From an uncultured Chloroflexia bacterium (lineage in GTDB: Bacteria; Chloroflexota; Limnocylindria; QHBO01): a stretch of 64,000 nt of DNA. The notes beneath the pieces were generated by a model. The model searched no databases. It was not told the origin of the DNA and was given only the letters and a program-made list of their open reading frames with translations. How positions within the stretch are numbered: position 1 is the stretch's first letter; every line of letters starts with the position of its first letter. Positions 20,227 through 56,289 of the stretch are shown here, one piece after another. The position numbers were made by a program, and so were the translations under genes. The stretch spans positions 139,583 through 203,582 of the forward strand of contig CAVZPD010000009.1 in the NCBI GenBank assembly GCA_963777045.1, given 5' to 3'.

Positions 20227-20231
20227 CGCCG

Positions 20232-20921: not shown

Positions 20922-20938
20922 CGCCACCTCCTGCTCCC

Positions 20939-21856: not shown

Positions 21857-21864
21857 GGTCCGGC

Positions 21865-23738: not shown

Positions 23739-23773
23739 CGTTGCGATTGCATCCTAGACGGCGTTCGGAAGGA

Positions 23774-24862
23774 TCATCCGCCCTCGTTGATGCGCGCCAC
23801 GTTGGCCAGCGACTGCTCCTGCAAGGAGGCACCGATCGGGGCGTAGTTGAGCTCCTGGGCAACGCTGTCGCCGTTCTCCAGCGCCCAGGTGAGGAACGCC
23901 TTGAGGGCATCGCCCTTGTTCGCGTCGAGGCCGCAGGTCGGCGCCAGGATCCAGGTCGCACCGGCGATCGGGTAGCCCTCGCCGCCCACGCCCAGGATGT
24001 TGAAGCGGAGGTCGTCGGGGATCTCGATCCCGTCCGCGGCCGCCGCCGTCGACTCCAGCGACGGCTCGATGGCGTTGCCGTCGGCGTTGACCATCGCTAC
24101 CGTCGAGAGGCCGTTCTCCAGCGCGTAGCTGAGCTCCACGTAGCCGATGCCGCCGTCGTTCTGGGCAATGGCGGCAGCGACGCCGTCGTTGCCCTGGCCG
24201 CCCACGCCAACCGGCCAGGTGACCTCCTTGCCCTTGCCGACCTGCGAGCTCCAGTCGCTGCTCTCGTCGTCGAGGTAGGTGGTGAAGATGCTGGTGGTTC
24301 CGGAGCCGTCGCTGCGGTGCGCGACGATGATCGGCTCGTCCGGGAGCGACGTCCCGTCGTTCAGGCCTGCAATGGCCGGGTCGTTCCACCGTGTGATCTC
24401 GCCCAGGAAGATCTGCGCCAGCGTCTCGGAATCGAGCGTCAGGCTCTCGACACCGGACAGGTTGTAGGCGACGGCCACGGCGCCGAACACGGTCGGGATG
24501 TGGACGACGTCGCAGCCCCAGGCATCCTCGGCGGCGGCGAGCTCCTCGTCCTTCATGAAGGCATCCGAGCCGCCGAAGTCGGTCGACTGGGCCGTGAACT
24601 GCTCCACGCCGCCACCCGAGCCGATCGGCTCGTAGGTGATGCTCACGTCGGGGTTGTCGCCGATGAAGGCGCCGATCCACTCCTGGTAGACCGGATCGGG
24701 GAAGGTGGCCCCGGCGCCGAGCATGTCGGCGCTCAGGCCGGATCCGCTGCTCGCCGAGCTGCCTCCGCCGGGCGATCCGTCGGCGCCCGAGCTGCAGGCT
24801 GCCATCATGACGGTGCCGGCGAGGGCCAGCGGCAGGATTCGCAGCCAGTGCTGCTTGATCAA
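23774..24862 (-). CDS. pstS: phosphate-binding lipoprotein PstS
   Basis: Lipobox LALAGTVMMAACSS, Ser/Gly linker, then a PBP fold with GAGATFP...SDGSGTT...YVELSYA motifs. Confidence 0.9.
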   Translation of the reverse strand: MIKQHWLRILPLALAGTVMMAACSSGADGSPGGGSSASSGSGLSADMLGAGATFPDPVYQEWIGAFIGDNPDVSITYEPIGSGGGVEQFTAQSTDFGGSDAFMKDEELAAAEDAWGCDVVHIPTVFGAVAVAYNLSGVESLTLDSETLAQIFLGEITRWNDPAIAGLNDGTSLPDEPIIVAHRSDGSGTTSIFTTYLDDESSDWSSQVGKGKEVTWPVGVGGQGNDGVAAAIAQNDGGIGYVELSYALENGLSTVAMVNADGNAIEPSLESTAAAADGIEIPDDLRFNILGVGGEGYPIAGATWILAPTCGLDANKGDALKAFLTWALENGDSVAQELNYAPIGASLQEQSLANVARINEGG

Positions 24863-24919
24863 GGTAGCTCTCCTTCGAATCGAACTTCACACATTGCAGC
24901 CACAGACTGGAGAGCACCG

Positions 24920-24963
24920 CTTAACGGGCCCTTAGCGGCGCGTTAAGGGGACGTCAAGGGCTG
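24920..24963 (-). promoter_or_regulatory. candidate Pho-box array upstream of pstS (four 11-nt direct repeat units)
   Basis: CTTAACGGGCC / CTTAGCGGCGC / GTTAAGGGGAC / GTCAAGGGCTG are contiguous 11-nt units (consensus sTTAAsGGssn), 60-100 nt upstream of the pstS start codon. The 11-nt periodicity is typical of OmpR/PhoB-family tandem sites. Confidence 0.4.
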
Positions 24964-25051
24964 ACCCGCGCAGGGCTGGCGGCCCTAATGTGTCGGCAAT
25001 GCCCGCCCGTCGATCGTCGTCGAGGTGGGGCCAGGCTGGAAGGAGGATCGG

Positions 25052-25411
25052 ATGACCGTCGTGGTGATCGCACTGGTGGGGCTTGCCGCCGGCGTGCTAT
25101 CGGGGCTGTTCGGCATCGGCGGCGGCGTGATCATCGTGCCGGTGCTGATCGTCTTCCTCGGTTTCACCGCCCAGCAGGCCGCGGGGACCTCGCTCGGCGC
25201 GCTGCTGCTGCCGGTCGGCCTCTTCGGCGCGATTCAGTACTGGCAGGCGGGCCAGGTCAACCTGCTCCACGCCGGCCTGCTCGCGCTGGGCCTCCTCTTC
25301 GGAGCCTTCCTTGGTGCCCGACTGGGCCTCGCGCTGCCATCGGACGTCCTCCAGCGCGCCTTCGGCGTCCTGCTGGTGCTCTTCGGGCTCCGGATGCTGA
25401 TCTGGGTCTAG
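25052..25411 (+). CDS. TauE/SafE-family anion permease, half-size (four TM helices)
   Basis: GLFGIGGGVIIVPVLIVFLGF...G...LLHAGLLALGLLFGAFLGARL matches one repeat unit of TauE/SafE sulfite exporters. Only ~119 aa. Confidence 0.45.
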   Translation: MTVVVIALVGLAAGVLSGLFGIGGGVIIVPVLIVFLGFTAQQAAGTSLGALLLPVGLFGAIQYWQAGQVNLLHAGLLALGLLFGAFLGARLGLALPSDVLQRAFGVLLVLFGLRMLIWV

Positions 25412-25437: not shown

Positions 25438-26451
25438 TCAGTTGAGAATCGGGTTGAGCACGAAGTAGGCGATCGCCGCGACAGTTCCCGACGCGGGGAT
25501 GGTCAGGACCCAGGCGATGCCAATGTTGCGGGCGACGCCCCAGCGCACGGACTTGAACCGATCAGATGCGCCCGTGCCCATGATCGCGCTCGAGATGACG
25601 TGCGTGGTGCTGACCGGCATGCCGAAGTGCGACGCGCCGAAGATGATCGTGGCGGCGGTGGTCTCCGCCGCGAAGCCGTGGACCGGGTCGAGCTTTACCA
25701 CGCGCGTCCCCATCGTCTTGATGATCCGCCAGCCGCCCGCCGCGGTCCCCAGCGAGATGGCGGTCGCGGCGAGGATGATGACCCACAGCGGGACCTCGAA
25801 CGTGGTCAGCACGCCGGCCTCGACCAGCGCCAGGGTCATGATGCCCATCGTCTTCTGGGCGTCGTTGCTCCCGTGGCTGAATGCCATGTAGCCGGCGGAG
25901 AGGACCTGCAGCCGCCGGAACAGGTCGTTCATGAAGTGCGGGTTGAAGCGCTTGAAGACGTTGAAGATCAGGATCATGAACCCCAGCGCCAGCAGCAGCC
26001 CGGCGATGGGCGAGGTGACGAGGGGGATGAGGACCTTGACGACGATCCCGTCGATCTGCCACGACGTGAAGCCGGCCGCAGCGGCCGCCGAGCCGAGGAG
26101 TCCGCCGATCAGGGCGTGGCTGCTCGACGACGGGATGCCCAGGCGCCAGGTGACCAGGTTCCAGGTGATGCCTCCCACCAGCGCGGCGGCGACCAGCACC
26201 TGTCCCGACACGCCGGCCTCCGCCTGCGACTGGATCAGCCCCGCGCCCACCGTCTTGGCCACGGCCGTCCCGGTCAGCGCCCCGGCGAAGTTGGCCACGG
26301 CGCTCATGCCGATGGCCCAGCCCGGCTTCAGCGCCCGCGTGCTGACGCTGGTGGCGATCGCATTGGCAGTGTCGTGGAAGCCGTTGATGTAGTCGAAGAT
26401 GACCGCGAGGATGAGGACCGCGACCAGGATCGCGGTGAAGCCGTCAGGCAT
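25438..26451 (-). CDS. pit: inorganic phosphate transporter, PiT family
   Basis: INGFHDTANAIATSV and SHGSNDAQKTMGI (duplicated PiT signature GANDVANA-like), ~10 TM helices, 337 aa. Confidence 0.9.
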   Translation of the reverse strand: MPDGFTAILVAVLILAVIFDYINGFHDTANAIATSVSTRALKPGWAIGMSAVANFAGALTGTAVAKTVGAGLIQSQAEAGVSGQVLVAAALVGGITWNLVTWRLGIPSSSSHALIGGLLGSAAAAAGFTSWQIDGIVVKVLIPLVTSPIAGLLLALGFMILIFNVFKRFNPHFMNDLFRRLQVLSAGYMAFSHGSNDAQKTMGIMTLALVEAGVLTTFEVPLWVIILAATAISLGTAAGGWRIIKTMGTRVVKLDPVHGFAAETTAATIIFGASHFGMPVSTTHVISSAIMGTGASDRFKSVRWGVARNIGIAWVLTIPASGTVAAIAYFVLNPILN

Positions 26452-27061
26452 GCTTGACGACGATCCGCTCGATCACGTTCGCGACGTCCTCGCAGGCATC
26501 CACGGCCTCCTCCAGTAGCTGGTAGATGTCCTTCCACTTGATGATCGTCACCGGGTCGTTCCCATGGCGGAAGAGCTCCGCCACCGCCTGCCGTGCGATC
26601 CGGTCACCCTCGTTCTCGAGGCGGTGGATCTCGATCCAGTAGCGATCGAGGCCCTTGAAGCCGCGGAGGCGCGACAGCGCATCGACGATCTGCTCGCACT
26701 GCAGCGTGATGATCTCGGCCTGCTTGACGGCGGTATCGCCGGGCGAGTCGATCGCGTACAGGATGCAGGTGTCGGCGACCTCCTCGATCAGGTCGATGAC
26801 GTCGTCGAGCCGGCTGATGAGGGCATGGATCTCTTCGCGGTCGAACGGGGTCACGAAGGTCGCTTCGAGCTTGTGGCCGATCTCGTGGCTGATCCGGTCA
26901 CCCTCGTGCTCGGCGTTGCGGAGCTGCATGCCAAGTCGCTCGCGCTCGTCGAAGTTCCGGAAGAACTCCTCCAGCAGCCGCGCGCCGGCGAGGACGTTCG
27001 ACGCGTCCTCCACGAACATCTCGTAGAACTTCTCTTCGCGAGGGATCAGGGGCAGGCGCAT
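26444..27061 (-). CDS. DUF47-family (PhoU-like) Pit accessory protein
   Basis: 205 aa from MRLPLIPREEKFYEMF, a helical PhoU-like protein. ATGA overlap with the pit start. The longer track ORF upstream is an extension without support. Confidence 0.75.
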   Translation of the reverse strand: MRLPLIPREEKFYEMFVEDASNVLAGARLLEEFFRNFDERERLGMQLRNAEHEGDRISHEIGHKLEATFVTPFDREEIHALISRLDDVIDLIEEVADTCILYAIDSPGDTAVKQAEIITLQCEQIVDALSRLRGFKGLDRYWIEIHRLENEGDRIARQAVAELFRHGNDPVTIIKWKDIYQLLEEAVDACEDVANVIERIVVKHA

Positions 27062-27318: not shown

Positions 27319-28851
27319 GTGACTCCATCGGTACCTCGGAGCGGAGCCAGGCGGACTGCCGCCCTGCTCGCCGCCCTGGCCCTGGTGATTGCCCTACCGG
27401 CCAGCGGCGCGCTCGCGAAGAAGAACGTCTCCGGCTACACGACGTCGGAGCCTCCACTGCTCACCGCCAACCAGGCCGGCGTGACGTTCACGGCGCTCAT
27501 CAACTCCGGCGAAACCGCCTTCGGCGACGAGTTCGCCGGACTGCCAGACGGCATCGGTGCGGTTCCGGCGCCCGGCAACCAGGGCTACGTGGACCTGTAC
27601 GTGAACCACGAAGAGTCACACGTGCCGTTCCTGGGCACGGCGGACTTCAATGACTCGTCGGTCTCGCGCGTGCGGGTGGACGTCGGATCCAGATCCATCA
27701 TCGACATGGACATTCCGCTGCCCGCGAGCCTTGGCTTCATCCGCTTCTGCTCGAGCTTCATGGCCGGGCCGGCGGAGGGATTCCCGCACTACACGCTGCT
27801 GACCAACGAGGAGTCGAACGACATTCTCGACGTGCCGGCGGGCGCGCCCTACGGCGCCGATCCGGCCCTGGCCCCGCAGCGGCAGGCCGGCTACTCGGTC
27901 GCGCTCGACACCGTGACCGGAAAGGTGACGACGCTCGACGCGGCAGGACGCCACAATCACGAGAACCAGGTCGTGGTGCCGGGTGGCTGGAAGGGGATCT
28001 ACTCCCTCTCCGGCGACGACACCTTCAGCGCCCCCAGCTCGCAGCTCTACATGTTCGCCAGCCCGAAGTGGCAGACCTATGTGAAGGGCGATGGCACGCT
28101 GTGGGCCTTCCGCGTCACGGCGACCGAGTCCGGGCCGGTGGACGCCACCGACGCGTTCAATGGCGCCAACGACTACCTCGACATGCAGCCGGGCGATACC
28201 TGGTCCGGCGAGTTCATCCCGGTTCCGGATGATGTTGCCCGGGGCCTGACCGGAGAGGCGCCGCAGACGGCCCTCGAGAACTGGTCGAATGCGAACAACG
28301 TCTTCCAGTTCGTCCGGATCGAGGACATCGACTACGACCCCGACAGCCCACGGACGGTCTACTTCGCCGACACGGGTACCACTCGTTTGATCCCCGACGG
28401 GAACGGACGGCTGGCCCGTGGGCCGAGCGGCACCGGCGTCAACACCAACGGCCGCATCTTCAAGATGACCATGAACGCGGACGACCCCACCGTGGTCGAC
28501 TCGTTCAGCATCCTGGCCGATGCAGACCAGCTCACTCCCGCGATGCGCAGCCCCGACAACATCGACGTCGGGCACGACAGCATCATGGTCCAGGAGGACA
28601 CCAGCAGCTTCTCGAAGATCTGGCAGTACTCCATGGGCAGCGGCGAGTGGACCGTCGTGGCCACGGGCGCAGTTGAGGATGCCGAAACGAGCGGCATCCT
28701 GGACGTCTCGCCGTGGTTCGGTCCCGGCATGTGGGCCCTCGTGGTGCAGGACCACACCCCGGCACACTGGGTTCGCTGGGAGACGGTCGGTGACGTGACC
28801 TACAAGGAGGAGGCCGGACAGCTGCTGCTGATGCACGTCCCCAACAGTTGA
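27319..28851 (+). CDS. secreted protein, probably PhoX/DUF839-like beta-propeller phosphatase
   Basis: GTG start preceded by GAGGAGG. Signal peptide RRTAALLAALALVIALPASGALA. Motifs AAGRHNHENQVV and FQFVRIEDIDYDPDSPRTVYFADTG resemble PhoX-type phosphatases. Genomic context is the Pho regulon. Confidence 0.45.
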   Translation: MTPSVPRSGARRTAALLAALALVIALPASGALAKKNVSGYTTSEPPLLTANQAGVTFTALINSGETAFGDEFAGLPDGIGAVPAPGNQGYVDLYVNHEESHVPFLGTADFNDSSVSRVRVDVGSRSIIDMDIPLPASLGFIRFCSSFMAGPAEGFPHYTLLTNEESNDILDVPAGAPYGADPALAPQRQAGYSVALDTVTGKVTTLDAAGRHNHENQVVVPGGWKGIYSLSGDDTFSAPSSQLYMFASPKWQTYVKGDGTLWAFRVTATESGPVDATDAFNGANDYLDMQPGDTWSGEFIPVPDDVARGLTGEAPQTALENWSNANNVFQFVRIEDIDYDPDSPRTVYFADTGTTRLIPDGNGRLARGPSGTGVNTNGRIFKMTMNADDPTVVDSFSILADADQLTPAMRSPDNIDVGHDSIMVQEDTSSFSKIWQYSMGSGEWTVVATGAVEDAETSGILDVSPWFGPGMWALVVQDHTPAHWVRWETVGDVTYKEEAGQLLLMHVPNS

Positions 28852-36284: not shown

Positions 36285-36825
36285 CTTCATCTCGGAGACG
36301 ACCGATCTGCTGCGGCGCACCCCCGACGTGCTTCGCAGCCTCCTCATCGGCCTACCTGAAGGATGGACCGATACGCCCGACACGCCGGCTGGCTGGCGCC
36401 CACGCGACGTCGTCGGCCACCTGATCACCGGCGAGCTGACCGATTGGATGGAGCGCACGCAGCGGATCCTGGAGCACGGCACGTCGCTGCCCTTCGACCG
36501 CTTCGACCGCTTCGCGCACGGGGACCGGGACGCCGACGCCTCCCTGGACGAGCTGGTCGAGCGCTTCGCCCAGCTCCGCGCGGAGAACCTGGCCCGGCTG
36601 GAGGAGCTCGTCACCGATGCCGACCTGGACCGGCGCGGCATGCACCCATGGCTGGGCGAGGTGACACTGCGAGAGCTCCTCTCGACCTGGGCGGTCCACG
36701 ACCTGGACCACGTCTCGCAGATCTTCGCGGGGATGGCCGGCTCGCACGACGCGGTGGTTGGGCCCTGGAAGGCCTACCTCGGAATCCTGCTTCGTCGCGA
36801 GGATCCCGCGGCCGTCGCCGGCTGA
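36277..36825 (+). CDS. DinB/YfiT-like (DinB_2) metal-dependent four-helix-bundle protein
   Basis: ATG overlaps the ArsC stop. HxxxE-type motifs (DVVGHLITGELTDW...WAVHDLDHVSQI) characteristic of the DinB_2 / mycothiol-dependent isomerase N-terminal-like fold. Confidence 0.55.
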   Translation: MADFISETTDLLRRTPDVLRSLLIGLPEGWTDTPDTPAGWRPRDVVGHLITGELTDWMERTQRILEHGTSLPFDRFDRFAHGDRDADASLDELVERFAQLRAENLARLEELVTDADLDRRGMHPWLGEVTLRELLSTWAVHDLDHVSQIFAGMAGSHDAVVGPWKAYLGILLRREDPAAVAG

Positions 36826-36927
36826 CGCCTCGGGTCAGCTCGAGGGCAGCCGCCATGCCTGCGCGGCGATAACGCTTCGCCGCCGTCATGCGCGCGACAG
36901 AGGTGGAGGGCGCCTGGTTGTTTGGTA

Positions 36928-36957
36928 TTGCCAGCGCCGGTCGAGTGCGGTTAGGGT
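36928..36957 (+). promoter_or_regulatory. candidate promoter of the giant secreted protein gene
   Basis: TTGCCA, ~18-nt spacer, TAGGGT. It is followed by AGGGGG (36979-36984) and the in-frame signal-peptide codons. Confidence 0.25.
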
Positions 36958-37053
36958 AGGGGCGCCCAGTGCCCAAGTAGGGGGTTCACCATCGGCGCTC
37001 GCCTGCTGAGGGTCGCCCACGCCCTCGCGTTCGCAATCTTCCTCGCGCTCCCG

Positions 37054-40000
37054 TTGCCCGCGCCCTCTGTCGCGGTGCCGACGGACGTGGGCTATCGCGA
37101 CTTCTCGTACGGCTCGAGCGTGAGCGCACCGACGGGCCAGAAGCCCCAGAGCAAGCTGTGGGTGAACGATGGCACCTGGTGGGGTGCCCTCTACAGCACC
37201 ACGGCGCATGCCTTCACTGTTCACCGGCTGGACTGGGCCACGCAGGAGTGGTCCGACACTGGTGTCGAGATCGATCCACGCACATCGGCCAGGTTGGACG
37301 TGATGTGGGATGGCAGCCACCTCTACACGATCGGTGCCGGAACGGGGACCAGCAGCGGCGACTCGGCGGAGCTGCGCCGCTTCAGCTACAGCCCCGGTGG
37401 CGGGTACGTGCTGGACGCGGGCTTTCCGGTCGTGGTGGTCGACGGCGGGATGGAGGCGGGCGTCTTCGACAAGGACTCCACCGGCGTTATCTGGTTCACG
37501 TACACGCGCGGCAACGCCACCTACGTCACCCACAGCACCACCGATGACCTCTCCTGGGGCACGCCATTCGTGATCCCGGTCGCGGGCGCCGACACGCTCG
37601 ATCCGGACGACATCTCGGCGGTCGTGGCGTACGACGGCAAGATTGGCGTCATGTGGAGCAACCAGACCGACTCCACGATGTACTTCGCGACGCACGCGGA
37701 CGGTGCACCGACCAGCCAGTGGACGGTCAATCCGGCCGTTCAGCTACCGGAGTACGCCGACGACCACTTGAACCTCAAGTCGCTCCAGGCCGATGCCGAC
37801 GGACGGGTCTACGCTGCGACGAAGACGTCGCTCAATGCTGGCAACGCTCCACTCATGCTCCTGCTGGTGCTCGACGGCAACGGCAGTTGGCAGCGCCACA
37901 CGGTGGCGACCGTGGCGGAGAACCACACGCGGCCGCTCGTCCTCATCGACCAGGAGAACCGGCAGCTCTACTGGTTCGCCGCCTCCCCCTGCTGCAGCGG
38001 CGGCACGATCTACTACAAGCAGACCTCGCTCGACAACATCTCGTTCGCACCCGGTCTTGGCACGCCGTTCATCGAGAGCAGCACGGACGTGAACATCAAC
38101 AACATCAGCTCGACCAAGCAGGCGCTCGACTCCTCGACGGGACTCGTGGCCATCGCCAGCGACGACCACACCCGCTACTACCTGCACAACGCCTTCAGCC
38201 TGGCACCGCCGGGCGGTCCGCCCGACACGACCATCACCTCCGGGCCGTCGGGCGACGTCTCGGTGGACACGGCCTCGTTCAGCTTCGTCTCGACGGTGAC
38301 CGGTTCTTCGTTCGAGTGCTCGCTCGACGGAGCGCCCGCTGTCAGCTGCACGTCGCCGACGACCTACACCGGCCTCGCCCTGGGCTCGCACACCTTCGAC
38401 GTTGCTGCGCGCGATCCCGCCGGCCAGCTCGATCCGTCGCCGGCCCACGCCGACTGGAACGTGGTCGATGCGGGTGACGTCGTCACCGAGGTGGACATCA
38501 GGATCGCGGCCTCCATCGACGACGCCGAGGAGTGGGAGAGCGGCGATGTCAATCTCGACAGCAGCGACCTCGAGCTGGTCGATGATTCCGGGCGCGGGAA
38601 CCAGGCGGTGGGCATGCGCTTCCCCGGCCTCACCATCCCGCCGGGCGCCACCATCACCGATGCCTGGATCCAGTTCCAGGTCGACGAGGCTTCCAGCGGC
38701 GGCGCTTCCCTCGTCATCTCCGCGCAGGATGCTGATAGCGCAGAGCCCTTCAGCAGCACGCCGGGAACCATCCGATCCCGCCCACGCACCACCTCCACGG
38801 TGGCGTGGAGCCCGCCGGGATGGCCCACCGTCGGCGCCGCCGGAGCGGAGCAGCGGACCCCGCCGCTGACCGCGGTCCTCCAGTCGCTCATCGATCGGCC
38901 GGGATGGGCAGCAGGCAACGCCGCCGCCTTCATCGTCACCGGCAGCGGCACGCGCTGGGCGGAAGCCTTCGACGGCGATCCTTCCGGCGCTCCGTTACTG
39001 CATGTCGCCTACAGCAGCGCGCCGCCCGACCCGCCGACCATCAGCGCTGTCTCGCCGACGAGCGGGCCACCCGGAACGCTGGTGACGATCGACGGGAGCG
39101 ACCTGGGCGGCGCGTCGGCCGTCGCCTTCAACGGGACGGCGGCGCCCTACACGGTCGTGTCGAGCTCGCAGATCACGGCGACGGTGCCGGGCGGCGCTAC
39201 CACGGGGCCCCTCTCGGTCACGGGGCCGGGCGGCACGACGAGCGGCCCGGACTTCACCGTCACGCCGGCCGAGCCCAGCGAAGCGATCCGCGTGCCGGCG
39301 GATCAGCCGACCATCCAGGCGGCCATCGACGTGGCCGTGGACGACGACGTCATCCTGGTGGCCCCCGGCACCTACCACGAGAGCGTCGTGATCAGCGGCA
39401 AGACGATCACGCTGGCGTCGCAGTACTACGAGTCGTCCGACCCGTCGCTCATCGAGTCGACCGTGATCGACACCAACGGATCTCAGGACGCGATCGTCAT
39501 CCAGGATACGACCGGAGCCGGTCCCACCATCCAGGGCCTGAAGCTGGTGAAGGGCTCGACCTCCATCCTGGACGGCATCCGCGTCGAGGGCAGCGCGCGC
39601 CTGCTCGACCTGCACATCGTCGGATTCGACGACGGCGTCGACCTGGATCCCCTCGGCGGCGGTTCATCCATCTGCGAGTGCCTCCGGAACCTGATCGAGC
39701 TCGGGACCGATGACGGCTTCGACCTGGACGGCGCGGCGGGCGGCGTCTTCGAGCAGAACATCCTGCGCAACAACCACGAAGACGGCATCGAGGTGCGCCT
39801 GTCCGACACCGCGGGCCTGGTGGAGATGACGTTCCGCGACAACGAGATCAGCGGCAATGGGCAGGACGGGATCCAGATCATCGACCTGCTCGGCGCCTCG
39901 AACCGGGTCTTCACCATCGAGCGCAACCTGATCGTGGACAACGGTCGGGCCGGCATCGGGCTCATGGACAACGCGCAGTCGGGCGAGGACTACCGCGCGG

Positions 40001-43000
40001 CCAGCCTGCCCGACCGGATCAACCTGTTCAACAACACGTTCTCCGGGAACGACCACGGAATGAGCGGCGGTGACAACGTCATCGGCCTCAACAACATCTT
40101 CGAGGGTTCAAGCGCCATCGGCGTCAAGGGCGTCGATGGGGGAAGCCTGCTCGCCTACAGCACCTTCTGGAACAACGGGACGGACGCCTCGGGCTCGAAC
40201 CTGGATGGCGCGACCACCCAGCAGGCTGATCCCCTGCTGGCGGCCGATTTCAGCCTCAGCGCGGGAAGCCCTGCCATCGATGCCGGCGTGGCCACGTACG
40301 ACTTCGGCGGCGAGACGGTGCTGGACCTGCCGCCGGGCTCGTACAGCGGCTCGGCGCCGGACCACGGAGCCCTCGAGTTCACGGGAAGCACGGGTCCCCC
40401 GAGCCCGACCATCAGCCAGCCGAGCGCCGGCGAGACCATCACGACACGGACCTTCACCGTGCGTGGCACGGCACCGGGCGCGGTCCGCGTGCGCCTCCTG
40501 GTCGACGGCAGCGAGCGCGCCTCCACCGCGGTGGGCAGCGGCGATGCGTGGGCCACCGTCGTCAACGGGCTGGCCGACGGGCCGCACACCCTGGCCACGG
40601 TGGCCGTGGATGCGGCGGACAACCAGTCGGCCGCGTCGGCGGACCTGGCCATCAGCGTCGCGGTTGCCGTGGCCGACCCGGTCGTGGCCGCTGCCGGCGA
40701 TATCGCCTGCGATCGCACCGGGACGACCGACTGCCGCCAGATGGCGACCTCCGATCTGCTGCTCGACGGGACCTACGACGCGGTGCTGAGCCTGGGCGAT
40801 CACCAGTACGAATGCGGCAGCAGCTCCGAGTTCGCCGTCGGGTACGACCCGAGCTGGGGCCGCGTCAAGCCGATCACGCGCCCGACCGTGGGCAACCACG
40901 AGTACTTCACCGATCGCGGCGTGGACTGCGATCCGACCGGCACCGCGAGCGGCTACTTCGACTACTTTGGAGCCGCGGCCGGGACGCAGGGCGAGGGCTG
41001 GTACTCCTACGACCTCGGTGGCTGGCACCTCGTGGCCCTCAACTCGAACTGCGCCGAGATCGGTGGCTGCGGCGCTGGATCGGCCCAGGAGCAGTGGCTG
41101 CAGGCGGACCTGGCGGCCAGCGGGGCGTCGTGCACCCTGGCGTACTGGCACCACCCGCGCTGGTCGAGCGGCAGCGTGCACGGCAGCGATGCGATCACGC
41201 AGGCGCTGGTTGACGCGCTCTACGCGAACGGCGCCGAGCTGCTGCTCGCCGGCCACGACCACGACTACGAGCGCTTCGCTCCGCAGGCCCCGGATGGGAC
41301 GTCGGACGCCGACTACGGGCTCCGCCAGTTCGTGGTGGGGACCGGCGGGCGGTCCGTCCTTCCGTTCGGGACCGTCCAGCCCAACAGCGAGGCCCGCGCC
41401 GCAACGGACTTCGGCGTCCTGTCGTTGACGCTCCACGACGCGGGCTATTCGTGGAGCTTCCTCACCACCTCCGGGTCGACGCTCGACAGCGGCACCGCGG
41501 ACTGCCATGGCGATCCCGGGTCAGGCGACACGACACCGCCGCAGACGACGATCGGCTCCGGACCCGCGGATCCATCTGCGTCGGCTGACGCCAGCTTCAC
41601 GCTCAGCTCGTCCGAGGCGGGCTCCACCTTCGAGTGCGCGCTCGACGGCGCCGCGTTCAGCGCCTGCACCTCGCCTGCCACCTACACCGGCCTGGCCGAT
41701 GGCTCCCATGGCTTCGCGGCGCGCGCCACCGACACATCCGGCAACACCGACCCCATCCCGGCCGCCTGGGGATGGACGATCGACACGACGGCCCCGTCCG
41801 TCACCAGCGTGAGCCCGGCGGACGGCGCGACCGGCGTAGACACCACGACCCTCGTGACCGCGACCCTTGACGAACCGGTGGATGCGGCATCGTTGACGAG
41901 CGCCACCTTCACCCTCGCCGCCAACGCGATTCCCGTGCCTGCCGATGTCTCGCTCGGCCCGGCCGCGAACGTCGTCACGCTGACTCCTGCCTCAGCCCTC
42001 GGCGAGCTGCAGACCTACACGGCGCGGCTCGACGGCCTGACCGACCGGGCCGGCAACCCGCTGGCGATCACCACGTGGTCGTTCACCACCGCGGGCGACA
42101 CGACCCCGCCGGAGACGACGATTGACTCCGGGCCAGGCGACCCGTCGCTGACCACGGCGGCCACCTTCACCCTGGGCTCGTCGGAGTCCGGCTCGACCTT
42201 CGAGTGCTCGCTCGACGGCGCCGCCTTCGCCCCCTGCGCCTCGCCTGCCTCCTACACCGACCTGGCCGATGGCCCGCACACCTTCGCGGCTCGCGCCACT
42301 GACGCGGCCGGCAACACCGATCCCACCCCTGCGACCTCGAGCTGGACGATCGACGCCACAGCGCCATCGGTCAGCGGGGTGAGCCCCGTCGATGGCGCGA
42401 CCGACGTCCCGCTGGCTACCAGCGTCACGGCGACCTTCGACGAGGCGATGGCACCCGCCACGGTCACGGGCTCGACCTTCCGCCTGACCCTGGCCGGCAG
42501 CCCGATTGCAGCCACCGTGAACTACAACGGCAACAGCCACGTGGCGACGCTGACCCCGAGCGCGCCGCTGGGGTACGCGGCAACCTACGTCGCGACGGTC
42601 GACGGCGCGACGGACGCGGCCGGCAACCCGCTCCCGGTCACCACCTGGTCGTTCACCACGGTGCCGGACACCACGCCACCCCAGACGAGCATCGGGTCAG
42701 GCCCAGCCGATCCGTCGTCATCGGCCGACGCGAGCTTCACCTTCTCGTCGTCCGAGGCTGGGTCGACGTTCGAGTGTGCGCTGGACGGCGCCGCCTTCGG
42801 TGCCTGCACCTCGCCCGCGTCGTACACCGGTCTGGCCGATGGCTCCCACGGCTTCTCGGCTCGGGCCACTGACGCAGCGGGCAACACCGATCCGACGCCC
42901 GCGACCTGGAGCTGGACGATCGACACCAGCGTGCCGCCGGCACCGGTGAGCGTCACCTTCAACCCGAACGCGGATGCCCACGTGCGGCAGGCGGCGCCGA

Positions 43001-44142
43001 CCGCGAACTACGGATCGTCCACCACGCTCCTCAGCGATGCGGTCGACGGCGGCGGGGCGGCCGAAGCCAACGTGCGCTTCAACGTCAGCGGCGTGAGCGG
43101 CACCGTGCAACGGGCCGTCCTGCGCATCTGGGTCACCAACAAGAGCAACAACGGCCCCAGCGTCTACCGATCGGACGCCGCCTGGAGCGAGGCCTCACTC
43201 GACTGGACCACGCGGCCGGCGCGGCTGGGCGGCGCTGTCGCCACCGCCGGGGCGATCGCCACCGGCTGGTACGAGTACGACGTGACGTCTGCGCTCTCCG
43301 GCGACGGGCTCTTCAGCTTCACGCTGGTCCCGACCTCTTCCGACGGGCTGGACTTCAGCTCCCGGGAAGGCAGCGTCCGGCCGCAGCTGGTGATCACCTA
43401 CCTGGGCGGCGACGACACCACGCCGCCGCAGACGACGATCCAGTCCGGTCCTCCCGATCCCAGCAGCTCGGGGAGTGCGACCTTCGCCTTCATCTCGAAC
43501 GAGCTGGGATCCAGCTTCGCCTGCTCGCTGGACGGCGCTCCGTTCGCGGCCTGCACCAGCCCCACGCAGTACACCGGGCTCTCGACCGGCCCACACGGCT
43601 TCTCGGTGCGCGCCACCGACGCGTCCGGCAACGCCGATCCCACTCCGGCAACCTGGTCCTGGACCATCGTGACGGCCACCTCGGGCACCTTCAGCGCCGG
43701 GGCCGATACGCTGGCGGACGAGCGTCGCTCGACCTCGAACTTCGGAACCACCACGACCCTGGAATCCGACGGCGACAGCGGCCGCAGCAAGCAGGCGTTC
43801 CTGCGGTTCGACGTCAGCGGGGCGACCTCCACCATCGTCTCGGCGAAGATCAGGATCTGGGTCACGAACGCCACTACCAACGGCCCGGAGGTCTTCTCCA
43901 TCGGCTCCGGCTGGGTCGAGGGAACACTCACCTGGGCCAATCGTCCACTGCCGATCGGCCCGGCGCTCGTGGACGCGGGCAGCATCGCCAGCGGGGCGTG
44001 GTACGAATTCGACGTGACGCCGGCGGTCACCGGCAACGGGACCTACTCGTTCGTCTTCGTCTCCGCGTCGACCGACGCGCTCAAGTTTGCGTCCCGGGAA
44101 ACAACCACGCCTCCGCAGCTGGTCGTGGTCTACGGCTCGTAG
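37054..44142 (+). CDS. giant (2362 aa from the TTG at 37054) secreted multidomain protein with a calcineurin-like metallophosphoesterase core
   Basis: Domain order, in translated coordinates: N-terminal Trp/Thr-rich beta region; IPT/TIG-like domain (PTISAVSPTSGPPGTLVTIDGSDLGG...); parallel beta-helix repeats (NILRNNHEDGIEV, RDNEISGNGQDGIQI, ERNLIVDNGRAGIGL); metallophosphoesterase motifs GDIACD, GDHQYE, GNHEY, GHDHDYERF; six ~95-aa two-Cys Ig-like repeats (TTPPQTTI.SGP.DPS...GSTFEC.LDGAAF.ACTSP..YTGLADG.H.F..RATD..GNTDP); Big_5-like P.DGAT.V domains; two DNRLRE/CBM-like domains. The true start is probably ~21 codons upstream (~36991, non-AUG), where an in-frame Sec signal peptide is encoded. 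Confidence 0.7.
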   Translation: MPAPSVAVPTDVGYRDFSYGSSVSAPTGQKPQSKLWVNDGTWWGALYSTTAHAFTVHRLDWATQEWSDTGVEIDPRTSARLDVMWDGSHLYTIGAGTGTSSGDSAELRRFSYSPGGGYVLDAGFPVVVVDGGMEAGVFDKDSTGVIWFTYTRGNATYVTHSTTDDLSWGTPFVIPVAGADTLDPDDISAVVAYDGKIGVMWSNQTDSTMYFATHADGAPTSQWTVNPAVQLPEYADDHLNLKSLQADADGRVYAATKTSLNAGNAPLMLLLVLDGNGSWQRHTVATVAENHTRPLVLIDQENRQLYWFAASPCCSGGTIYYKQTSLDNISFAPGLGTPFIESSTDVNINNISSTKQALDSSTGLVAIASDDHTRYYLHNAFSLAPPGGPPDTTITSGPSGDVSVDTASFSFVSTVTGSSFECSLDGAPAVSCTSPTTYTGLALGSHTFDVAARDPAGQLDPSPAHADWNVVDAGDVVTEVDIRIAASIDDAEEWESGDVNLDSSDLELVDDSGRGNQAVGMRFPGLTIPPGATITDAWIQFQVDEASSGGASLVISAQDADSAEPFSSTPGTIRSRPRTTSTVAWSPPGWPTVGAAGAEQRTPPLTAVLQSLIDRPGWAAGNAAAFIVTGSGTRWAEAFDGDPSGAPLLHVAYSSAPPDPPTISAVSPTSGPPGTLVTIDGSDLGGASAVAFNGTAAPYTVVSSSQITATVPGGATTGPLSVTGPGGTTSGPDFTVTPAEPSEAIRVPADQPTIQAAIDVAVDDDVILVAPGTYHESVVISGKTITLASQYYESSDPSLIESTVIDTNGSQDAIVIQDTTGAGPTIQGLKLVKGSTSILDGIRVEGSARLLDLHIVGFDDGVDLDPLGGGSSICECLRNLIELGTDDGFDLDGAAGGVFEQNILRNNHEDGIEVRLSDTAGLVEMTFRDNEISGNGQDGIQIIDLLGASNRVFTIERNLIVDNGRAGIGLMDNAQSGEDYRAASLPDRINLFNNTFSGNDHGMSGGDNVIGLNNIFEGSSAIGVKGVDGGSLLAYSTFWNNGTDASGSNLDGATTQQADPLLAADFSLSAGSPAIDAGVATYDFGGETVLDLPPGSYSGSAPDHGALEFTGSTGPPSPTISQPSAGETITTRTFTVRGTAPGAVRVRLLVDGSERASTAVGSGDAWATVVNGLADGPHTLATVAVDAADNQSAASADLAISVAVAVADPVVAAAGDIACDRTGTTDCRQMATSDLLLDGTYDAVLSLGDHQYECGSSSEFAVGYDPSWGRVKPITRPTVGNHEYFTDRGVDCDPTGTASGYFDYFGAAAGTQGEGWYSYDLGGWHLVALNSNCAEIGGCGAGSAQEQWLQADLAASGASCTLAYWHHPRWSSGSVHGSDAITQALVDALYANGAELLLAGHDHDYERFAPQAPDGTSDADYGLRQFVVGTGGRSVLPFGTVQPNSEARAATDFGVLSLTLHDAGYSWSFLTTSGSTLDSGTADCHGDPGSGDTTPPQTTIGSGPADPSASADASFTLSSSEAGSTFECALDGAAFSACTSPATYTGLADGSHGFAARATDTSGNTDPIPAAWGWTIDTTAPSVTSVSPADGATGVDTTTLVTATLDEPVDAASLTSATFTLAANAIPVPADVSLGPAANVVTLTPASALGELQTYTARLDGLTDRAGNPLAITTWSFTTAGDTTPPETTIDSGPGDPSLTTAATFTLGSSESGSTFECSLDGAAFAPCASPASYTDLADGPHTFAARATDAAGNTDPTPATSSWTIDATAPSVSGVSPVDGATDVPLATSVTATFDEAMAPATVTGSTFRLTLAGSPIAATVNYNGNSHVATLTPSAPLGYAATYVATVDGATDAAGNPLPVTTWSFTTVPDTTPPQTSIGSGPADPSSSADASFTFSSSEAGSTFECALDGAAFGACTSPASYTGLADGSHGFSARATDAAGNTDPTPATWSWTIDTSVPPAPVSVTFNPNADAHVRQAAPTANYGSSTTLLSDAVDGGGAAEANVRFNVSGVSGTVQRAVLRIWVTNKSNNGPSVYRSDAAWSEASLDWTTRPARLGGAVATAGAIATGWYEYDVTSALSGDGLFSFTLVPTSSDGLDFSSREGSVRPQLVITYLGGDDTTPPQTTIQSGPPDPSSSGSATFAFISNELGSSFACSLDGAPFAACTSPTQYTGLSTGPHGFSVRATDASGNADPTPATWSWTIVTATSGTFSAGADTLADERRSTSNFGTTTTLESDGDSGRSKQAFLRFDVSGATSTIVSAKIRIWVTNATTNGPEVFSIGSGWVEGTLTWANRPLPIGPALVDAGSIASGAWYEFDVTPAVTGNGTYSFVFVSASTDALKFASRETTTPPQLVVVYGS
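41521..43680 (+). repeat. intragenic tandem repeats (~570-750 nt period, 4 units) inside the giant gene
   Basis: Units begin with near-identical GACACGAC(A/C)CCGCCG(C/G)AGACGACGAT... at ~41527, ~42100, ~42667 and ~43417. Each encodes the two-Cys Ig-like module plus a Big-like domain. Confidence 0.6.
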
Positions 44143-44161: not shown

Positions 44162-44237
44162 TGGAGGGCCGTGTGGGATTCGAACCCACGACACGAGGAT
44201 TAAAAGTCCCCTGCTCTAACCACTGAGCTAACGGCCC
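44162..44237 (-). tRNA. tRNA-Lys (anticodon UUU)
   Basis: Minus-strand sequence GGGCCGTTAGCTCAGTGGTTAGAGCAGGGGACTTTTAATCCTCGTGTCGTGGGTTCGAATCCCACACGGCCCTCCA folds as a cloverleaf. Acceptor GGGCCGT/ACGGCCC, D-arm GCTC/GAGC, anticodon stem GGGGA/TCCTC with loop CTTTTAA, T-arm GTGGG-TTCGAAT-CCCAC, then discriminator T and CCA. Confidence 0.85.
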
Positions 44238-44240
44238 ACC
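44200..44240. repeat. att core copy A (within the tRNA-Lys 5' half, from anticodon loop to 5' end)
   Basis: TTAAAAGTCCCCTGCTCTAACCACTGAGCTAACGGCCCACC, identical to copy B over 41 nt and to copy C over 38 nt. Confidence 0.6.
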
Positions 44241-44354
44241 GATTCGTGCTCAGTTAGAGCACGTGATTCGAAGGAGACTTGACTACACCGTTCTTACAGC
44301 ACATGATTCGGCCGGTCTAGTCAACGCCAACGCCGCCGAATCTCCTGCTGTCAG

Positions 44355-45269
44355 ATGCCTACCAAACCAGCGACCCACGCTCACGCGAACCTCGACCTGG
44401 CCAATGCGGTCGGCTCCTTCACGCGCCATCTTAGGGCAGAGAATCTGGCACCCTCCACCGTGGCCACCTACGTGAAGGCGCTGAACCAGCTGCATACCTT
44501 CCTGGCAGGGAAGGGGATGCCGACCGACGTCGCCGCTGTCCGGCGCGAGCACCTCGAGGCCTTCCTCGTCGGCCTCCAGGACTCCGGCCACCGGCCGGCG
44601 ACGGTGGCCAACCGGTATCGGTCCCTCCAGCAAGTCTTCCGCTGGCTGGTGAACGAGGACGAGATCCGCGAGTCGCCAATGGCCCGCATGCGTCCACCGG
44701 CCGTCCCCGACGATCCGCCGCCGGTGCTGCGCACCGAGCAGCTCGAGCGCCTGCTGGCCGCCTGCGCCGGCACGTCGTTCGAGGAGCGCCGCGACACGGC
44801 CGTCATCCGCCTGCTGGCGTCGACCGGCATGCGTCGCGGCGAGTGCATCGGGCTGCGGGTCGAGGACGTCGACTTCGACCACGAGGTGGCGCTGGTGCTG
44901 GGCAAGGGCCGCCGCCCGCGGGCCTGCCCCTTCGACCGGCAGACCAGCCGCGCCTTGGACCGATACCTCCGCGTCCGCAAGCTGCACTTCGACGCCGATA
45001 CGCCCTGGCTGTGGCTCGGCAAGCGCGGGCGCCTGACCGATACCGGCCTCGCCCAGGTCCTCCGCCGCCGCGGCGCGGCTGCCGGCATACCGAAACTGCA
45101 CCCTCACCTCTTCCGCCACACCTTCGCTCACCAGTGGCTCGCTGATGGCGGCACGGAGGGCGACCTCATGCGCCTGGCTGGCTGGAAGTCGCGCGAGATG
45201 CTGTCCCGCTATGGAGCCTCAGCTGCCCATGAGCGGGCGCAGGAGGCCTATCGGCGGCTTCGCGGATGA
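44355..45269 (+). CDS. tyrosine-type site-specific recombinase/integrase (XerC/D-like)
   Basis: N-terminal SAM-like core-binding domain. Catalytic domain with R (LASTGMRRGE), HxxR (HLFRHTFA), conserved R and Y in LAGWKSREMLSRYGAS. Adjacent to tRNA-Lys. Confidence 0.85.
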   Translation: MPTKPATHAHANLDLANAVGSFTRHLRAENLAPSTVATYVKALNQLHTFLAGKGMPTDVAAVRREHLEAFLVGLQDSGHRPATVANRYRSLQQVFRWLVNEDEIRESPMARMRPPAVPDDPPPVLRTEQLERLLAACAGTSFEERRDTAVIRLLASTGMRRGECIGLRVEDVDFDHEVALVLGKGRRPRACPFDRQTSRALDRYLRVRKLHFDADTPWLWLGKRGRLTDTGLAQVLRRRGAAAGIPKLHPHLFRHTFAHQWLADGGTEGDLMRLAGWKSREMLSRYGASAAHERAQEAYRRLRG

Positions 45270-51194: not shown

Positions 51195-51481
51195 TGGGAC
51201 GGCGTGGGGGCCGCTCCAGCCCATCCGAGCGTGCGCTGCGAGGCCGCATCGGTGCGCATCTGCTGCACGCCACGCACGACTCCCGGCGCCTGACCGAGAA
51301 GGCTCGCGCCACGTTCATGGCGAGCTTCGAGCGGCAGGTCGATCCGGATCGCAGCTTGCCGGCTGACGAGCGTCGGCGGCGGGCGACCCATGCGCGGGCT
51401 GCGCACTTCGCACGCCTTGCCAGGATGAGCAGTCTGGCACGCGCCCAACGCAAGCGTCGTGCCCGTCGCGGCGGGGGATGA
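51191..51481 (+). CDS. hypothetical basic protein
   Basis: GTGA overlap with the upstream gene and ATGA overlap with the downstream gene. Arg-rich C-terminus (ARAQRKRRARRGGG). No recognisable motif. Confidence 0.3.
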   Translation: MMGRRGGRSSPSERALRGRIGAHLLHATHDSRRLTEKARATFMASFERQVDPDRSLPADERRRRATHARAAHFARLARMSSLARAQRKRRARRGGG

Positions 51482-52440
51482 TGGTCGCGTCCAGGCAGGC
51501 CCGCACCCGGCGGTCGGCGCCCATCGGGCCGCCAGGCATGAACGCCTGGCCGGCGCTACCAGTCCGTGATCAGCGGCTCATCGCGTGGCTGTGGGCCGGC
51601 GACGTCGTGAACTCGGAGCTGGCGGCCGTGCTCGCGTATGGCAGCCTCCGCATTGCTCAGCGACGGCTGTCGCGCCTCGTCGAATACGGGATCCTGCGCG
51701 GCTTCTGGGCGGGAAACAGCCAGCGGCCCCGCGGGCGATACGCGTACGTTCTGACGAAGAGCGCCCGCAAGGATCTCGGGTTTCTTCTCTGGGAGCACTC
51801 GCAGCCGGAGCTGGCGGACGATCAGCTGCAGGCCCCCTCGCCGGTCATCCACCAGCTCGCGACCCACGATCTCCTTGCCGCCTTTCTGCGCGCCTCGCCG
51901 CTGACCGACGAGATTGGCCTCGCTGCGTGGGTCCCGGAACATGCCGCCACTGTTCCTTACCGCGGCGTGCAGCGTCCCGATGCAATAGCCCTCGTTCGGC
52001 GCGGTCACGAGGGCGCGTTGCTGATCATCGAGCGCGACATGGGCAGCGAGCGCCACGAGATTCTCATCCGGAAGTTGGAGCGGTACAGGTTCACACGGAT
52101 TCACCCGGTGGGGACGAACCTGGGTTTCATTGTCGAAGGTTCCCGCCGCGCCGGTGCATTGCGGGTCTCGTTGCGTCGTGCCCAGGACCGATGGCACAAC
52201 CGGGGCAACCAGGAGGACCTCGCGTGCTGGATTACCACCGGCGCTGACCTGCGCGACGATCCGTTCGGCGCGGTGTGGCGCTCGCCCGACGGGCGCGAGG
52301 CGACAGTCCTGGACATGCCTGCCATCGAGTTGCCCGCGCCCCTGCCGATCCTGTCCCCGCCGGCTCTCCTCGACGACGAAGCCGAGGGCGCGCTGGACGA
52401 TCGAGCCCTGGCCATGGTTGGCTGGGGCCGCCGCCGCTAG
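51478..52440 (+). CDS. replication-relaxation (Replic_Relax)-like protein, plasmid/ICE-associated
   Basis: N-terminal wHTH-like region (LIAWLWAGDVVNSELAAVLAYGSLRIAQRRLSRLVEYGILRGFW...RYAYVLTKSARKDLG), then a larger domain. A diverged copy of its last ~14 codons recurs at 55180-55222. Confidence 0.4.
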   Translation: MMVASRQARTRRSAPIGPPGMNAWPALPVRDQRLIAWLWAGDVVNSELAAVLAYGSLRIAQRRLSRLVEYGILRGFWAGNSQRPRGRYAYVLTKSARKDLGFLLWEHSQPELADDQLQAPSPVIHQLATHDLLAAFLRASPLTDEIGLAAWVPEHAATVPYRGVQRPDAIALVRRGHEGALLIIERDMGSERHEILIRKLERYRFTRIHPVGTNLGFIVEGSRRAGALRVSLRRAQDRWHNRGNQEDLACWITTGADLRDDPFGAVWRSPDGREATVLDMPAIELPAPLPILSPPALLDDEAEGALDDRALAMVGWGRRR

Positions 52441-55094: not shown

Positions 55095-55135
55095 TTAAAA
55101 GTCCCCTGCTCTAACCACTGAGCTAACGGCCCACC
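55095..55135. repeat. att core copy B (junction between elements 1 and 2)
   Basis: 41-nt identity to the tRNA-Lys 5' half. Followed, like copy A, by the GTGCTCA(A/G)TTAGAGCAC hairpin and GA(T/C)TCGAAG motif. Preceded by a ~100-nt arm shared with copy C. Confidence 0.6.
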
Positions 55136-55170
55136 GTCTCGTGCTCAATTAGAGCACGTGACTCGAAGAA

Positions 55171-55236
55171 GGCTTGTCGATGATCGCGCGCTCGCGATGG
55201 TCGGCTGGGGCGGCCGCCGCTAGGTTGTTCCGTCCG
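55171..55236 (+). pseudogene. remnant of the 3' end of a Replic_Relax-like gene
   Basis: GATGATCGCGCGCTCGCGATGGTCGGCTGGGGCGGCCGCCGCTAGGTTGTTCC aligns (~80% identity) with 52393-52450, which encodes ...LDDRALAMVGWGRRR* at the end of the 51478..52440 gene. The track ORF 55174..55518 covers this region in a different frame. Confidence 0.4.
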
Positions 55237-55637: not shown

Positions 55638-56089
55638 TTCGGCTGCGGCCGCAGCCGTTCGATCAGCGCATCGCAACCGCCGAGGTCGCCTTTCGCGGCC
55701 TCGGTTACGTTCACATCGCGGATCCAGGCCCGATTCCGGGGACGCCCCGGACCATCAGCATCGGCATCGACCATCCGGGGTGGGGCCTCCCGACAGCGGC
55801 GCGCCTTGAGTTCGTGGAGCGCTGGGTCTTCTCTGGCGGGACATGGGAATTGACCAAGTACGCCTACGAGTTGCGGGCGGTGCCCGGACCCAGCCGGCTC
55901 GCCTTCCACTGGCACAATGGCCTCCACCACACGCATTGCGTCGATCCGAACCACCCGGCTCGCGCGCACCACTTCCAGGGTGGCCCAGTCGACCTGTTCG
56001 CTGCGTACCAGACCTTCGGTCGCTTGCTGGCATCCGGCAGCCTGATCAGCTGCCAGGGCCTGACTCCGCTACCCGGGCCAGGAGCCTGA
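55634..56089 (+). CDS. hypothetical protein
   Basis: GTGA overlap with the Xis-like gene. 151 aa, His/Trp-rich (HWHNGLHHTHCVDPNHPARAHHFQG). No family recognised. Confidence 0.3.
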   Translation: MIRLRPQPFDQRIATAEVAFRGLGYVHIADPGPIPGTPRTISIGIDHPGWGLPTAARLEFVERWVFSGGTWELTKYAYELRAVPGPSRLAFHWHNGLHHTHCVDPNHPARAHHFQGGPVDLFAAYQTFGRLLASGSLISCQGLTPLPGPGA

Positions 56090-56289
56090 TCACTCAGCCT
56101 AACCGAGGCGATGCGCATAGGCTTGAGCCCTTCATCGGTCATGGCGGCGCAACGGCCACAGGAGATCCGCACGCGGTTGAGCGACACGCTCAGCCGACGC
56201 CCGAACGGCCGTGGAGTCTCACTCCGGACGTTGTCCTCTTCGACAGATCTGGCGAAACAGCAGAGGCGTCTGCGAGCATCTGGACAGAC

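Follow-up and report, generated by a model that had tools for sequence, protein, structure and literature searches.

In plants, purple acid phosphatases (PAPs), whose colour comes from a Tyr-to-Fe charge transfer in an Fe(III)-M(II) centre, are the classic enzymes of phosphate starvation. For the characterised bacterial PAP-like enzyme Rv2577 (MmpE) both phosphatase and phosphodiesterase activities are reported (PMC7642983). The founding member of family CBM96, module TM6-N4 of the alginate lyase Dp0100, binds alginate, with the conserved pair Lys27 and Arg36 as ligand residues, and the corresponding DNRLRE domains are also part of lyases for alginate, hyaluronate and pectate (PMC9971899); they were first reported from cell-surface proteins of archaea and bacteria (PMC2447325; PMC9971899). 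Here we describe a gene in which a PAP-type core and two CBM96 modules stand in one very large protein. It lies in a 64,000-nucleotide stretch (hereafter the window; G+C about 70%) of an uncultured Chloroflexia bacterium, positions 139,583 to 203,582 of contig CAVZPD010000009.1 (assembly GCA_963777045.1), and probably encodes 2,383 residues, among them an N-terminal head domain that defines a large protein family of its own. The order of the modules is beta-propeller, two-cysteine repeat, module X2, TIG, beta-helix, Big_13, PAP, a series of two-cysteine–Big_5 units and two two-cysteine–CBM96 units.

Results

A purple-acid-phosphatase-type core with a complete metal site

The phosphoesterase core (residues 1226–1508; 40666..41514, plus strand) is of the PAP type, with a calcineurin-like alpha/beta sandwich fold and an intact ligand set. 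It is assigned in this way because its seven metal ligands are invariant, its sequence matches in the PDB are all PAPs and its closest folds are all PAPs. The ligands (D1237, D1270, Y1273, N1302, H1387, H1422 and H1424) do not vary in an alignment of 35 homologs (A2), and neither do the histidine of the GNHE motif and six cysteines, out of the eight that the core of this protein holds. The five-block signature GDxx / GDxxY / GNH(D/E) / H / GHxH is complete, and the motifs GDIACD, GDHQYE, GNHEY and GHDHDYERF, on which a first-pass annotation made from the letters of this DNA had based its metallophosphoesterase call, are all found in the translation. The site is therefore non-degenerate, with every one of the seven ligands conserved. 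Blocks III–V align with GNHE, WHAP and GHVHAYER of the wheat PAP, while blocks I and II were placed through the strand positions of the structural model together with a phmmer alignment, in which block II is ambiguous.

Comparison with families and solved structures gave the same picture. The Pfam family PF00149 (Metallophos) matches the core with 29–34 bits (cut-off 21.5), and all 16 sequence matches in the PDB, obtained by single-sequence and profile searches, are PAPs, the best of them wheat PAPhy (E = 1.3e-13). The AlphaFold2 model of the core has a predicted local distance difference test score (pLDDT) of 87.6 and a predicted template modelling score (pTM) of 0.90. When it was compared with the PDB using Foldseek, the top 31 structures were PAPs (E from 3.5e-15 to 6.5e-12, template modelling (TM) scores of 0.67–0.77), and PhoD, Rv0805, SMPDL3A and GpdQ ranked below these 31. 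The conserved cysteines would fit an extracellular enzyme. Homologs of the core number more than 8,000, mostly proteins of 300–480 amino acids labelled 'acid phosphatase type 7' or metallophosphoesterase, and fusion of the stand-alone forms to Calx-beta or to one CBM96 is frequent.

An all-beta head without a family model

The N-terminal head (residues 29–408; 37075..38214, plus strand) was modeled by AlphaFold2 as an all-beta domain of about 380 residues with 28 strands (pLDDT 90.1, pTM 0.88). The model confidently predicts a beta-propeller, with seven blades by strand count. No Pfam family matches the head even at E ≤ 10, and no NCBIfam model does so either. Residues that do not vary in alignment A1 of the head include K27, D32, D75, H207, H231, N233, K250, R286, K315, Y369 and H371. 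The domain is nevertheless far from rare, since an exhaustive search recovered at least 2,654 representative clusters (50% identity) at E ≤ 0.001. They occur chiefly in Chloroflexota and Actinomycetota, in smaller numbers in Acidobacteriota, Eisenbacteria and KSB1, and Kribbella and Rubrobacter taiwanensis are hosts that have been cultured. The head begins within the first 100 residues in 189 of the 202 proteins collected (median residue 35), a position that fits a placement just behind a signal peptide.

A scan of 60 members of the head family showed no Pfam family over the head itself and tails composed of CBM96, Big_13/Big_5, PA14, F5/8 type C, LamG, polysaccharide lyase and SLH modules, the last of these in two of the 60. 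Other relatives bear up to 37 TIG repeats, or 20–30 two-cysteine repeats, behind the same head. The phosphatase, which had been taken for the core of the protein, thus turns out to be one exchangeable module among several, and it is the propeller head that defines the family.

Searches with the head model against the PDB returned generic propellers only (TM 0.45–0.56), such as the EPTP domain of LGI1 (5y2z, TM 0.55) and the Pseudomonas aeruginosa pseudaminidase (TM 0.48). Against viral models the best matches were gp425 and gp427, uncharacterised proteins of Bacillus phage G, with a TM score of about 0.63. As for membership of the sialidases (GH33-like), no BNR/Asp-box or sialidase Pfam family matches the head at E ≤ 10, and the fold matches to 3h6j and 2w38 have TM scores of 0.47–0.48.

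Accessory modules and their recurring combinations

The remaining modules were called with profile scans of the protein against Pfam and NCBIfam, which recovered the TIG, beta-helix, Metallophos, Big and CBM96/DNRLRE domains. The domain list of the first-pass annotation (an N-terminal beta-rich region, TIG, beta-helix, metallophosphoesterase, Big_13/Big_5 and two CBM96/DNRLRE modules) stands except for its six two-cysteine repeats, of which five are counted. These repeats, matched by OmpL47-type and Y_Y_Y models, are found at residues 441, 1547, 1737, 1927 and 2176.

The first repeat (38227..38481) follows the head and precedes X2 (residues 506–676; 38506..39018), an accessory domain without a family model that has no match in Pfam and no sequence match in the PDB. 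A relationship of X2 with CBM96, as a divergent member, was considered and ruled out by hhalign (probability 0.6%). X2 stands alongside a beta-helix in 69 of 120 hits, 67 of them being plain X2–beta-helix proteins, and it also surrounds PAP cores, in proteins of the form X2-PAP-X2-X2; it is probably a module of the binding type. It is followed by an IPT/TIG domain (39034..39258; PF01833, E = 1.1e-10) and by a right-handed parallel beta-helix of the Beta_helix/NosD kind (39298..40335; PF13229 with 38.5 bits against a cut-off of 25.9, and PF05048 with 25 bits against 23.6). The beta-helix has no sequence relative in the PDB at E ≤ 1, and its homologs bear only the name 'right-handed parallel beta-helix repeat-containing protein'. 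For neither the beta-helix nor the propeller could catalytic residues or a CAZy family be assigned through Pfam, PDB sequence or fold searches.

A Big_13 Ig-like spacer (40372..40656; PF19077) leads into the PAP core, which is followed by two tandem spacers, each a two-cysteine repeat plus Big_5 (41533..42675; two Big_5 matches, repeat families D1–D4), and by two units in which a two-cysteine repeat precedes a CBM96/DNRLRE module (repeat 4 and module 1 at 42676..43410; repeat 5 and module 2 at 43411..44142, up to the stop codon). All of these lie on the plus strand. The CBM96 assignment is far above the cut-offs, with 195.6 bits for PF24517 and 149.5 bits for NF033679, each over two stretches, and the PDB entry 8wab ('DNRLRE domain-containing protein') matches the region of module 2 (E = 1.4e-4). 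An acidic polysaccharide is a plausible ligand for these modules, by analogy with the alginate-binding founder of CBM96 and with the acidic-polysaccharide lyases that contain DNRLRE domains.

Three proteins of about 900 amino acids combine a beta-helix, a CBM96 and a PAP core. Because these cores are just 30–33% identical to that of the window, the comparison suggests that fusions of this type arose more than once.

Translation start and export

A single open frame on the plus strand runs from 36955, the first codon past a TAG stop (36952–54), to the stop codon at 44140–44142. Its G+C content at third codon positions (0.90) is like that of the other genes in the window, and it is a real gene. 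The earlier description of it as 36955–44142 with 2,362 amino acids had the frame right and the figures mismatched, since 36955 is merely the codon after the stop and 2,362 residues are counted from TTG 37054, the first canonical start in frame; no ATG, GTG or TTG lies in frame between the upstream stop and that codon. The database entry for this protein (P0001) starts later still, at GTG 37075. Either start would drop the signal peptide that is encoded just 5′ of it.

The likely start is the non-canonical ATC at 36991–36993 (AUC in the messenger), which gives a protein of 2,383 amino acids. It is preferred because the signal peptide, the spacing from the Shine-Dalgarno sequence and the starts of the orthologs agree. 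A strong Shine-Dalgarno sequence, AGGGGG (36979–36984, plus strand), precedes the ATC by 6 nt. In the locus of the closest ortholog (L001) an in-frame ATC (9968–9970) stands at a similar distance after GGAGGGG, the spacing being 6–7 nt in the two genes, and likewise opens a signal peptide, and in a third ortholog (locus L082) an ATG occupies the place equivalent to ATC 36991. The public annotations of the window gene and of its ortholog begin further downstream, and the signal peptide is lost from them.

The predicted signal peptide, (M)GARLLRVAHALAFAIFLALPLPAPSVA (residues 1–28; 36991..37074, plus strand), was recognised from its hydrophobicity and from the ortholog peptides in L001 and L082. 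Cleavage is expected between SVA and VPTD, and the peptide is part of the protein only if translation begins at the ATC. The one other hydrophobic stretch (residues about 1214–1240) is the linker just before the phosphatase's first strand and is not membrane-like. No LPXTG motif, no SLH domain (Pfam) and no hydrophobic C-terminal segment was found, and the best reading of the sequence is that of a secreted, unanchored protein. The cell-surface anchor proposed at first thus finds no support, the sortase motif, the SLH domain and the membrane segment being all absent.

A promoter-like site, TTGCCA-18 nt-TAGGGT (36928..36960, plus strand), lies directly 5′ of the gene and may act as its promoter. 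A consensus promoter scan passes over it, owing to the scan's own rules. Its -10 region falls within a conserved 9-mer, TAGGGTAGG (36952–36960), which occurs a single time in the window and, among 85 fetched loci, only 5′ of the two orthologs (L001/L002, at 9929–9937 in L001, and L082, at 9612–9620), in intergenic DNA that has otherwise diverged among the three genes. The 9-mer could serve as a -10 region, or else as an operator specific to this gene. A stand-alone transcription unit is the best explanation for the arrangement.

Orthologs and rarity of the whole assembly

The full order of modules was found in about five database members: the window's own entry (P0001), P0002 (70% identical; Chloroflexia metagenome-assembled genome (MAG), locus L001), P0003 (61% identical; Chloroflexota MAG, locus L082), P0004, which is partial and comes from a member of the Limnocylindria, and P0005, in which the order is rearranged. 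Judged by its closest relatives, the bacterium of the window is a soil-type member of the Chloroflexota. In P0002 the two-cysteine–Big_5 unit, of about 190 amino acids, is present four times in identical form, at residues about 1531–2290, versus two diverged copies in the window (570-nt DNA period, 66–80% nucleotide identity); the length of the tail therefore varies between orthologs, and the identity of the four copies points to a recent tandem amplification of the spacer in P0002. The recognisable parts are all of known kinds, their assembly is rare, and the modules recombine freely in these phyla; the propeller head and X2 are the parts that are truly uncharacterised.

Directly 5′ of the P0003 gene (L082 7734–9467) lies a gene for a 577-amino-acid protein with a 5′-nucleotidase C-terminal domain, a phosphoesterase of extracellular type. 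Such a neighbour is absent from the window and from L001.

Gene neighbourhood

The gene had been described as lying just downstream of the phosphate-transport genes and as part of their regulon. The genes named, among them pst/pho, pit, GH2, GH3 and ArsC/LMW-PTP, are indeed present; pstS, though, lies 12 kb away and on the opposite strand. The cluster phoR-phoP-phoU-pstBACS occupies 18455–24862, with phoP at 19510–20226, and the pit and DUF47 genes 25438–27060, both on the minus strand. The 12 kb between pstS and the big gene contain pit/DUF47, a TauE/SafE fragment, a 510-amino-acid protein, GH2, Lipoprotein_15, PEPCK, GH3, ArsC/LMW-PTP and a DinB-family gene. The TauE/SafE fragment (24989–25411, plus strand), between pstS and pit, is a frame of 140 amino acids that covers only the C-terminal half of the profile (positions 120–237 of 237) and may be truncated or have its start mis-set. 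The 510-amino-acid protein (27319–28851, plus strand; divergent from the DUF47-pit operon) has a signal peptide containing RR and matches nothing in Pfam, NCBIfam or the sequences of the PDB even at E ≤ 1; its description as PhoX-like thus finds no support at lenient thresholds, and a distant secreted enzyme is a possible identity for its product.

Four consecutive 11-nt direct repeats (CTTAACGGGCC, CTTAGCGGCGC, GTTAAGGGGAC and GTCAAGGGCTG) lie 5′ of pstS, at 24920–24963 in its promoter region (24863–24990), with a consensus of about STTAASGGNNN. This array, which is unique in the window, is what would be expected of a PHO-box-like arrangement. A scan with a matrix drawn from this one promoter gave 25 bits at pstS, no pair above 4 bits in the region 36650–37010, 5′ of the big gene, and no second site in the window. 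The comparison of loci agrees with this result. Within 10 kb of 81 loci of the propeller family, none has pstS, pstC, pstA, phoU or pit; each of the orthologs P0002, P0003 and P0005 (loci L001, L082 and L083) has surroundings of its own, all of them free of pst; and pst genes are likewise missing around the X2-PAP and beta-helix-CBM96-PAP genes (L084 and L085). That the big gene lies near the pst-phoU-phoPR cluster is most probably a coincidence, because the PHO-box array is absent and the synteny with pst is not conserved, the synteny being the stronger argument. Without a PHO-box-like array, with no relative near pst and with a promoter-like site of its own, the gene offers no support for the proposed link to the phosphate regulon.

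On its other side the gene is directly followed by a tRNA-Lys(UUU) gene on the minus strand (44162–44237); an Rfam scan of the whole window returned this tRNA only. The 5′ half of this tRNA and its upstream flank (44200–44281) are repeated at 55095–55176 with 93% identity, and the tRNA part recurs again at about 57597–57634. Between 44162 and 57634 are found a tyrosine recombinase (44355–45269), an ABC ATPase with a 1,308-amino-acid FtsX-type permease, a LuxR regulator, a Replic_Relax protein (51478–52440) and an ECF-type sigma factor (55843–56820), and the G+C content falls to 0.62–0.65 at 52–56 kb. The pattern suggests that the tRNA gene has taken up one or two integrated elements, about 10.9 kb and 2.5 kb long. 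The big gene was considered as cargo of this island and rejected as such, the 3′ part of the tRNA being single-copy in the window and the repeated pieces lying to the right of the gene.

Discussion

We consider it fairly probable, from the sequence and the models built on it, that the gene encodes a secreted, unanchored modular enzyme that works while held on polysaccharide. In this proposal translation would begin at the non-canonical AUC, and the protein would be exported after removal of a Sec-type signal peptide. The two C-terminal CBM96 modules, probably together with X2, would hold it on a polysaccharide, which could be the matrix of the cell itself or a polymer of plants or microbes, with the Ig-like repeats serving as spacers between the modules. 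The binuclear metal centre of the PAP type would then hydrolyse phosphate esters within the polysaccharide matrix, and the propeller and the beta-helix would probably be carbohydrate-active or carbohydrate-recognising partners acting on the same material. From the first-pass annotation this proposal retains an extracellular phosphatase held on polysaccharide, which the predicted signal peptide, the intact PAP site and the two CBM96 modules make reasonable, and gives up phosphate regulation and the anchoring to the cell surface. Several points weigh against it. The propeller and the beta-helix could be purely binding domains, the specificity of CBM96 cannot be read off a single member that binds alginate, the PAP core may act on monoesters, diesters or phytate, and the ATC start is drawn from two genomes. 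The PHO-box matrix, which comes from a single promoter without a second site to validate it, has low power.

Three other explanations were weighed. A phosphate-starvation-induced scavenger at the cell surface, co-located with pstSCAB-phoU-phoPR, pit and other phosphatases, would account for the intact PAP site and the export of the protein, for the presence of pstSCAB-phoU-phoPR, pit/DUF47 and ArsC/LMW-PTP within 1–18 kb, and for the likeness to the starvation enzymes of plants. It appears quite unlikely, however, given the 12 kb and the change of strand that separate pstS from the gene, with PEPCK, GH2, GH3, DinB and unrelated genes between them, the scores of at most 4 bits 5′ of the gene, the pst-free surroundings of the propeller family and of the three orthologs, the unsupported PhoX-like neighbour and the missing anchor. 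The second explanation is a machine for degrading glycopolymers, in which the beta-helix and/or the propeller would cut a polysaccharide that bears phosphate groups or phosphodiester links (for instance a teichoic-acid-like polymer, a phosphoglycan or capsule) and the PAP would remove or cleave the phosphate groups, for carbon acquisition or matrix remodelling rather than for phosphate. It is unlikely as it stands, since neither the beta-helix nor the propeller has assignable catalytic residues or a CAZy family, most homologs of the PAP core are single-domain proteins with no glycan-degrading partner, and no conserved polysaccharide-utilisation genes lie beside the orthologs. It gains some weight from the recurrence of a beta-helix, CBM96 and a distantly related PAP in small proteins, which suggests selection for the combination, from X2 being common to beta-helix and PAP proteins, from the polysaccharide lyase and lectin-type modules among the partners of the propeller, from the occurrence of DNRLRE/CBM96 in lyases of uronate polymers (PMC9971899) and from the reported double activity of Rv2577 (PMC7642983). 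The boldest reading, in which the head would be the catalytic domain of an undescribed carbohydrate-active family and the giant a three-enzyme machine (propeller, beta-helix and PAP) that dismantles a phosphorylated extracellular glycopolymer, is doubtful.

The third explanation, a structural protein of the surface or matrix (an adhesin or an S-layer-like fibre) whose enzyme-like domains would be only binding or scaffold modules, is very unlikely. Neither the seven PAP ligands nor the histidine of GNHE vary between this protein and its orthologs, unlike what a decayed structural domain would show, and an SLH domain, a sortase signal and a membrane anchor are all missing from the protein. Its best arguments are the large share of the protein taken up by Ig-like, TIG and two-cysteine repeats, the long TIG or two-cysteine arrays of some propeller-headed relatives, the tail modules that vary between orthologs (two versus four identical copies), the first description of DNRLRE domains in cell-surface proteins (PMC2447325; PMC9971899) and the SLH domains of two family members.

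If the PAP module is active, the big protein and its many simpler relatives would represent an uncharacterised class of polysaccharide-targeted extracellular phosphatases of bacteria. Such relatives appear abundant in soil metagenomes and would therefore have a bearing on the turnover of organic phosphorus. The propeller head is the more useful lead. Its 'dark' domain family is large and widespread among the Chloroflexota and Actinomycetota of soils, has partners of the carbohydrate type and includes cultured hosts (Kribbella and Rubrobacter taiwanensis).

Compared with described systems, the head has the all-beta propeller fold of the sialidase/pseudaminidase-type structures (3h6j and 2w38), of the LGI1 EPTP domain (5y2z) and of gp425/gp427 of phage G, but with TM scores of only 0.45–0.65 and identities of 10–15%, values at which enzymatic and binding propellers are not told apart. 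At the other end of the protein the two CBM96 modules match PF24517 and NF033679 as other CBM96/DNRLRE proteins do, and the NCBI titles the orthologs 'DNRLRE domain-containing protein'. In Dp0100, however, CBM96 is joined to a polysaccharide lyase, whereas in the protein of the window the catalytic partner whose active site can be recognised is a phosphatase.

The closest relatives of the core are stand-alone, secreted metallophosphoesterases of bacteria, which are 55–62% identical over the whole core and have the same invariant residues. Some of them (P0122, P0123, P0128 and P0207) consist of the core plus one CBM96. They are proteins of 300–480 amino acids with at most one accessory module, and a propeller, X2 or beta-helix occurs in none of the 120 best homologs. 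No characterised member of this 'acid phosphatase type 7' group was found in the literature searched. With the solved PAPs, namely wheat PAPhy (6git/6gja), the kidney bean enzyme (1kbp) and mammalian ACP5/TRAP (2bq8, 1ute), the core shares the fold and the five-block, seven-ligand signature, including the ligand tyrosine that defines PAPs within the calcineurin-like superfamily. The differences are that its identity to them is only 16–22%, that it is without the N-terminal domain of the plant enzymes and has eight cysteines, and that, while the known PAPs are enzymes of 35–55 kDa, it is a module in the middle of a protein of 2,383 amino acids.

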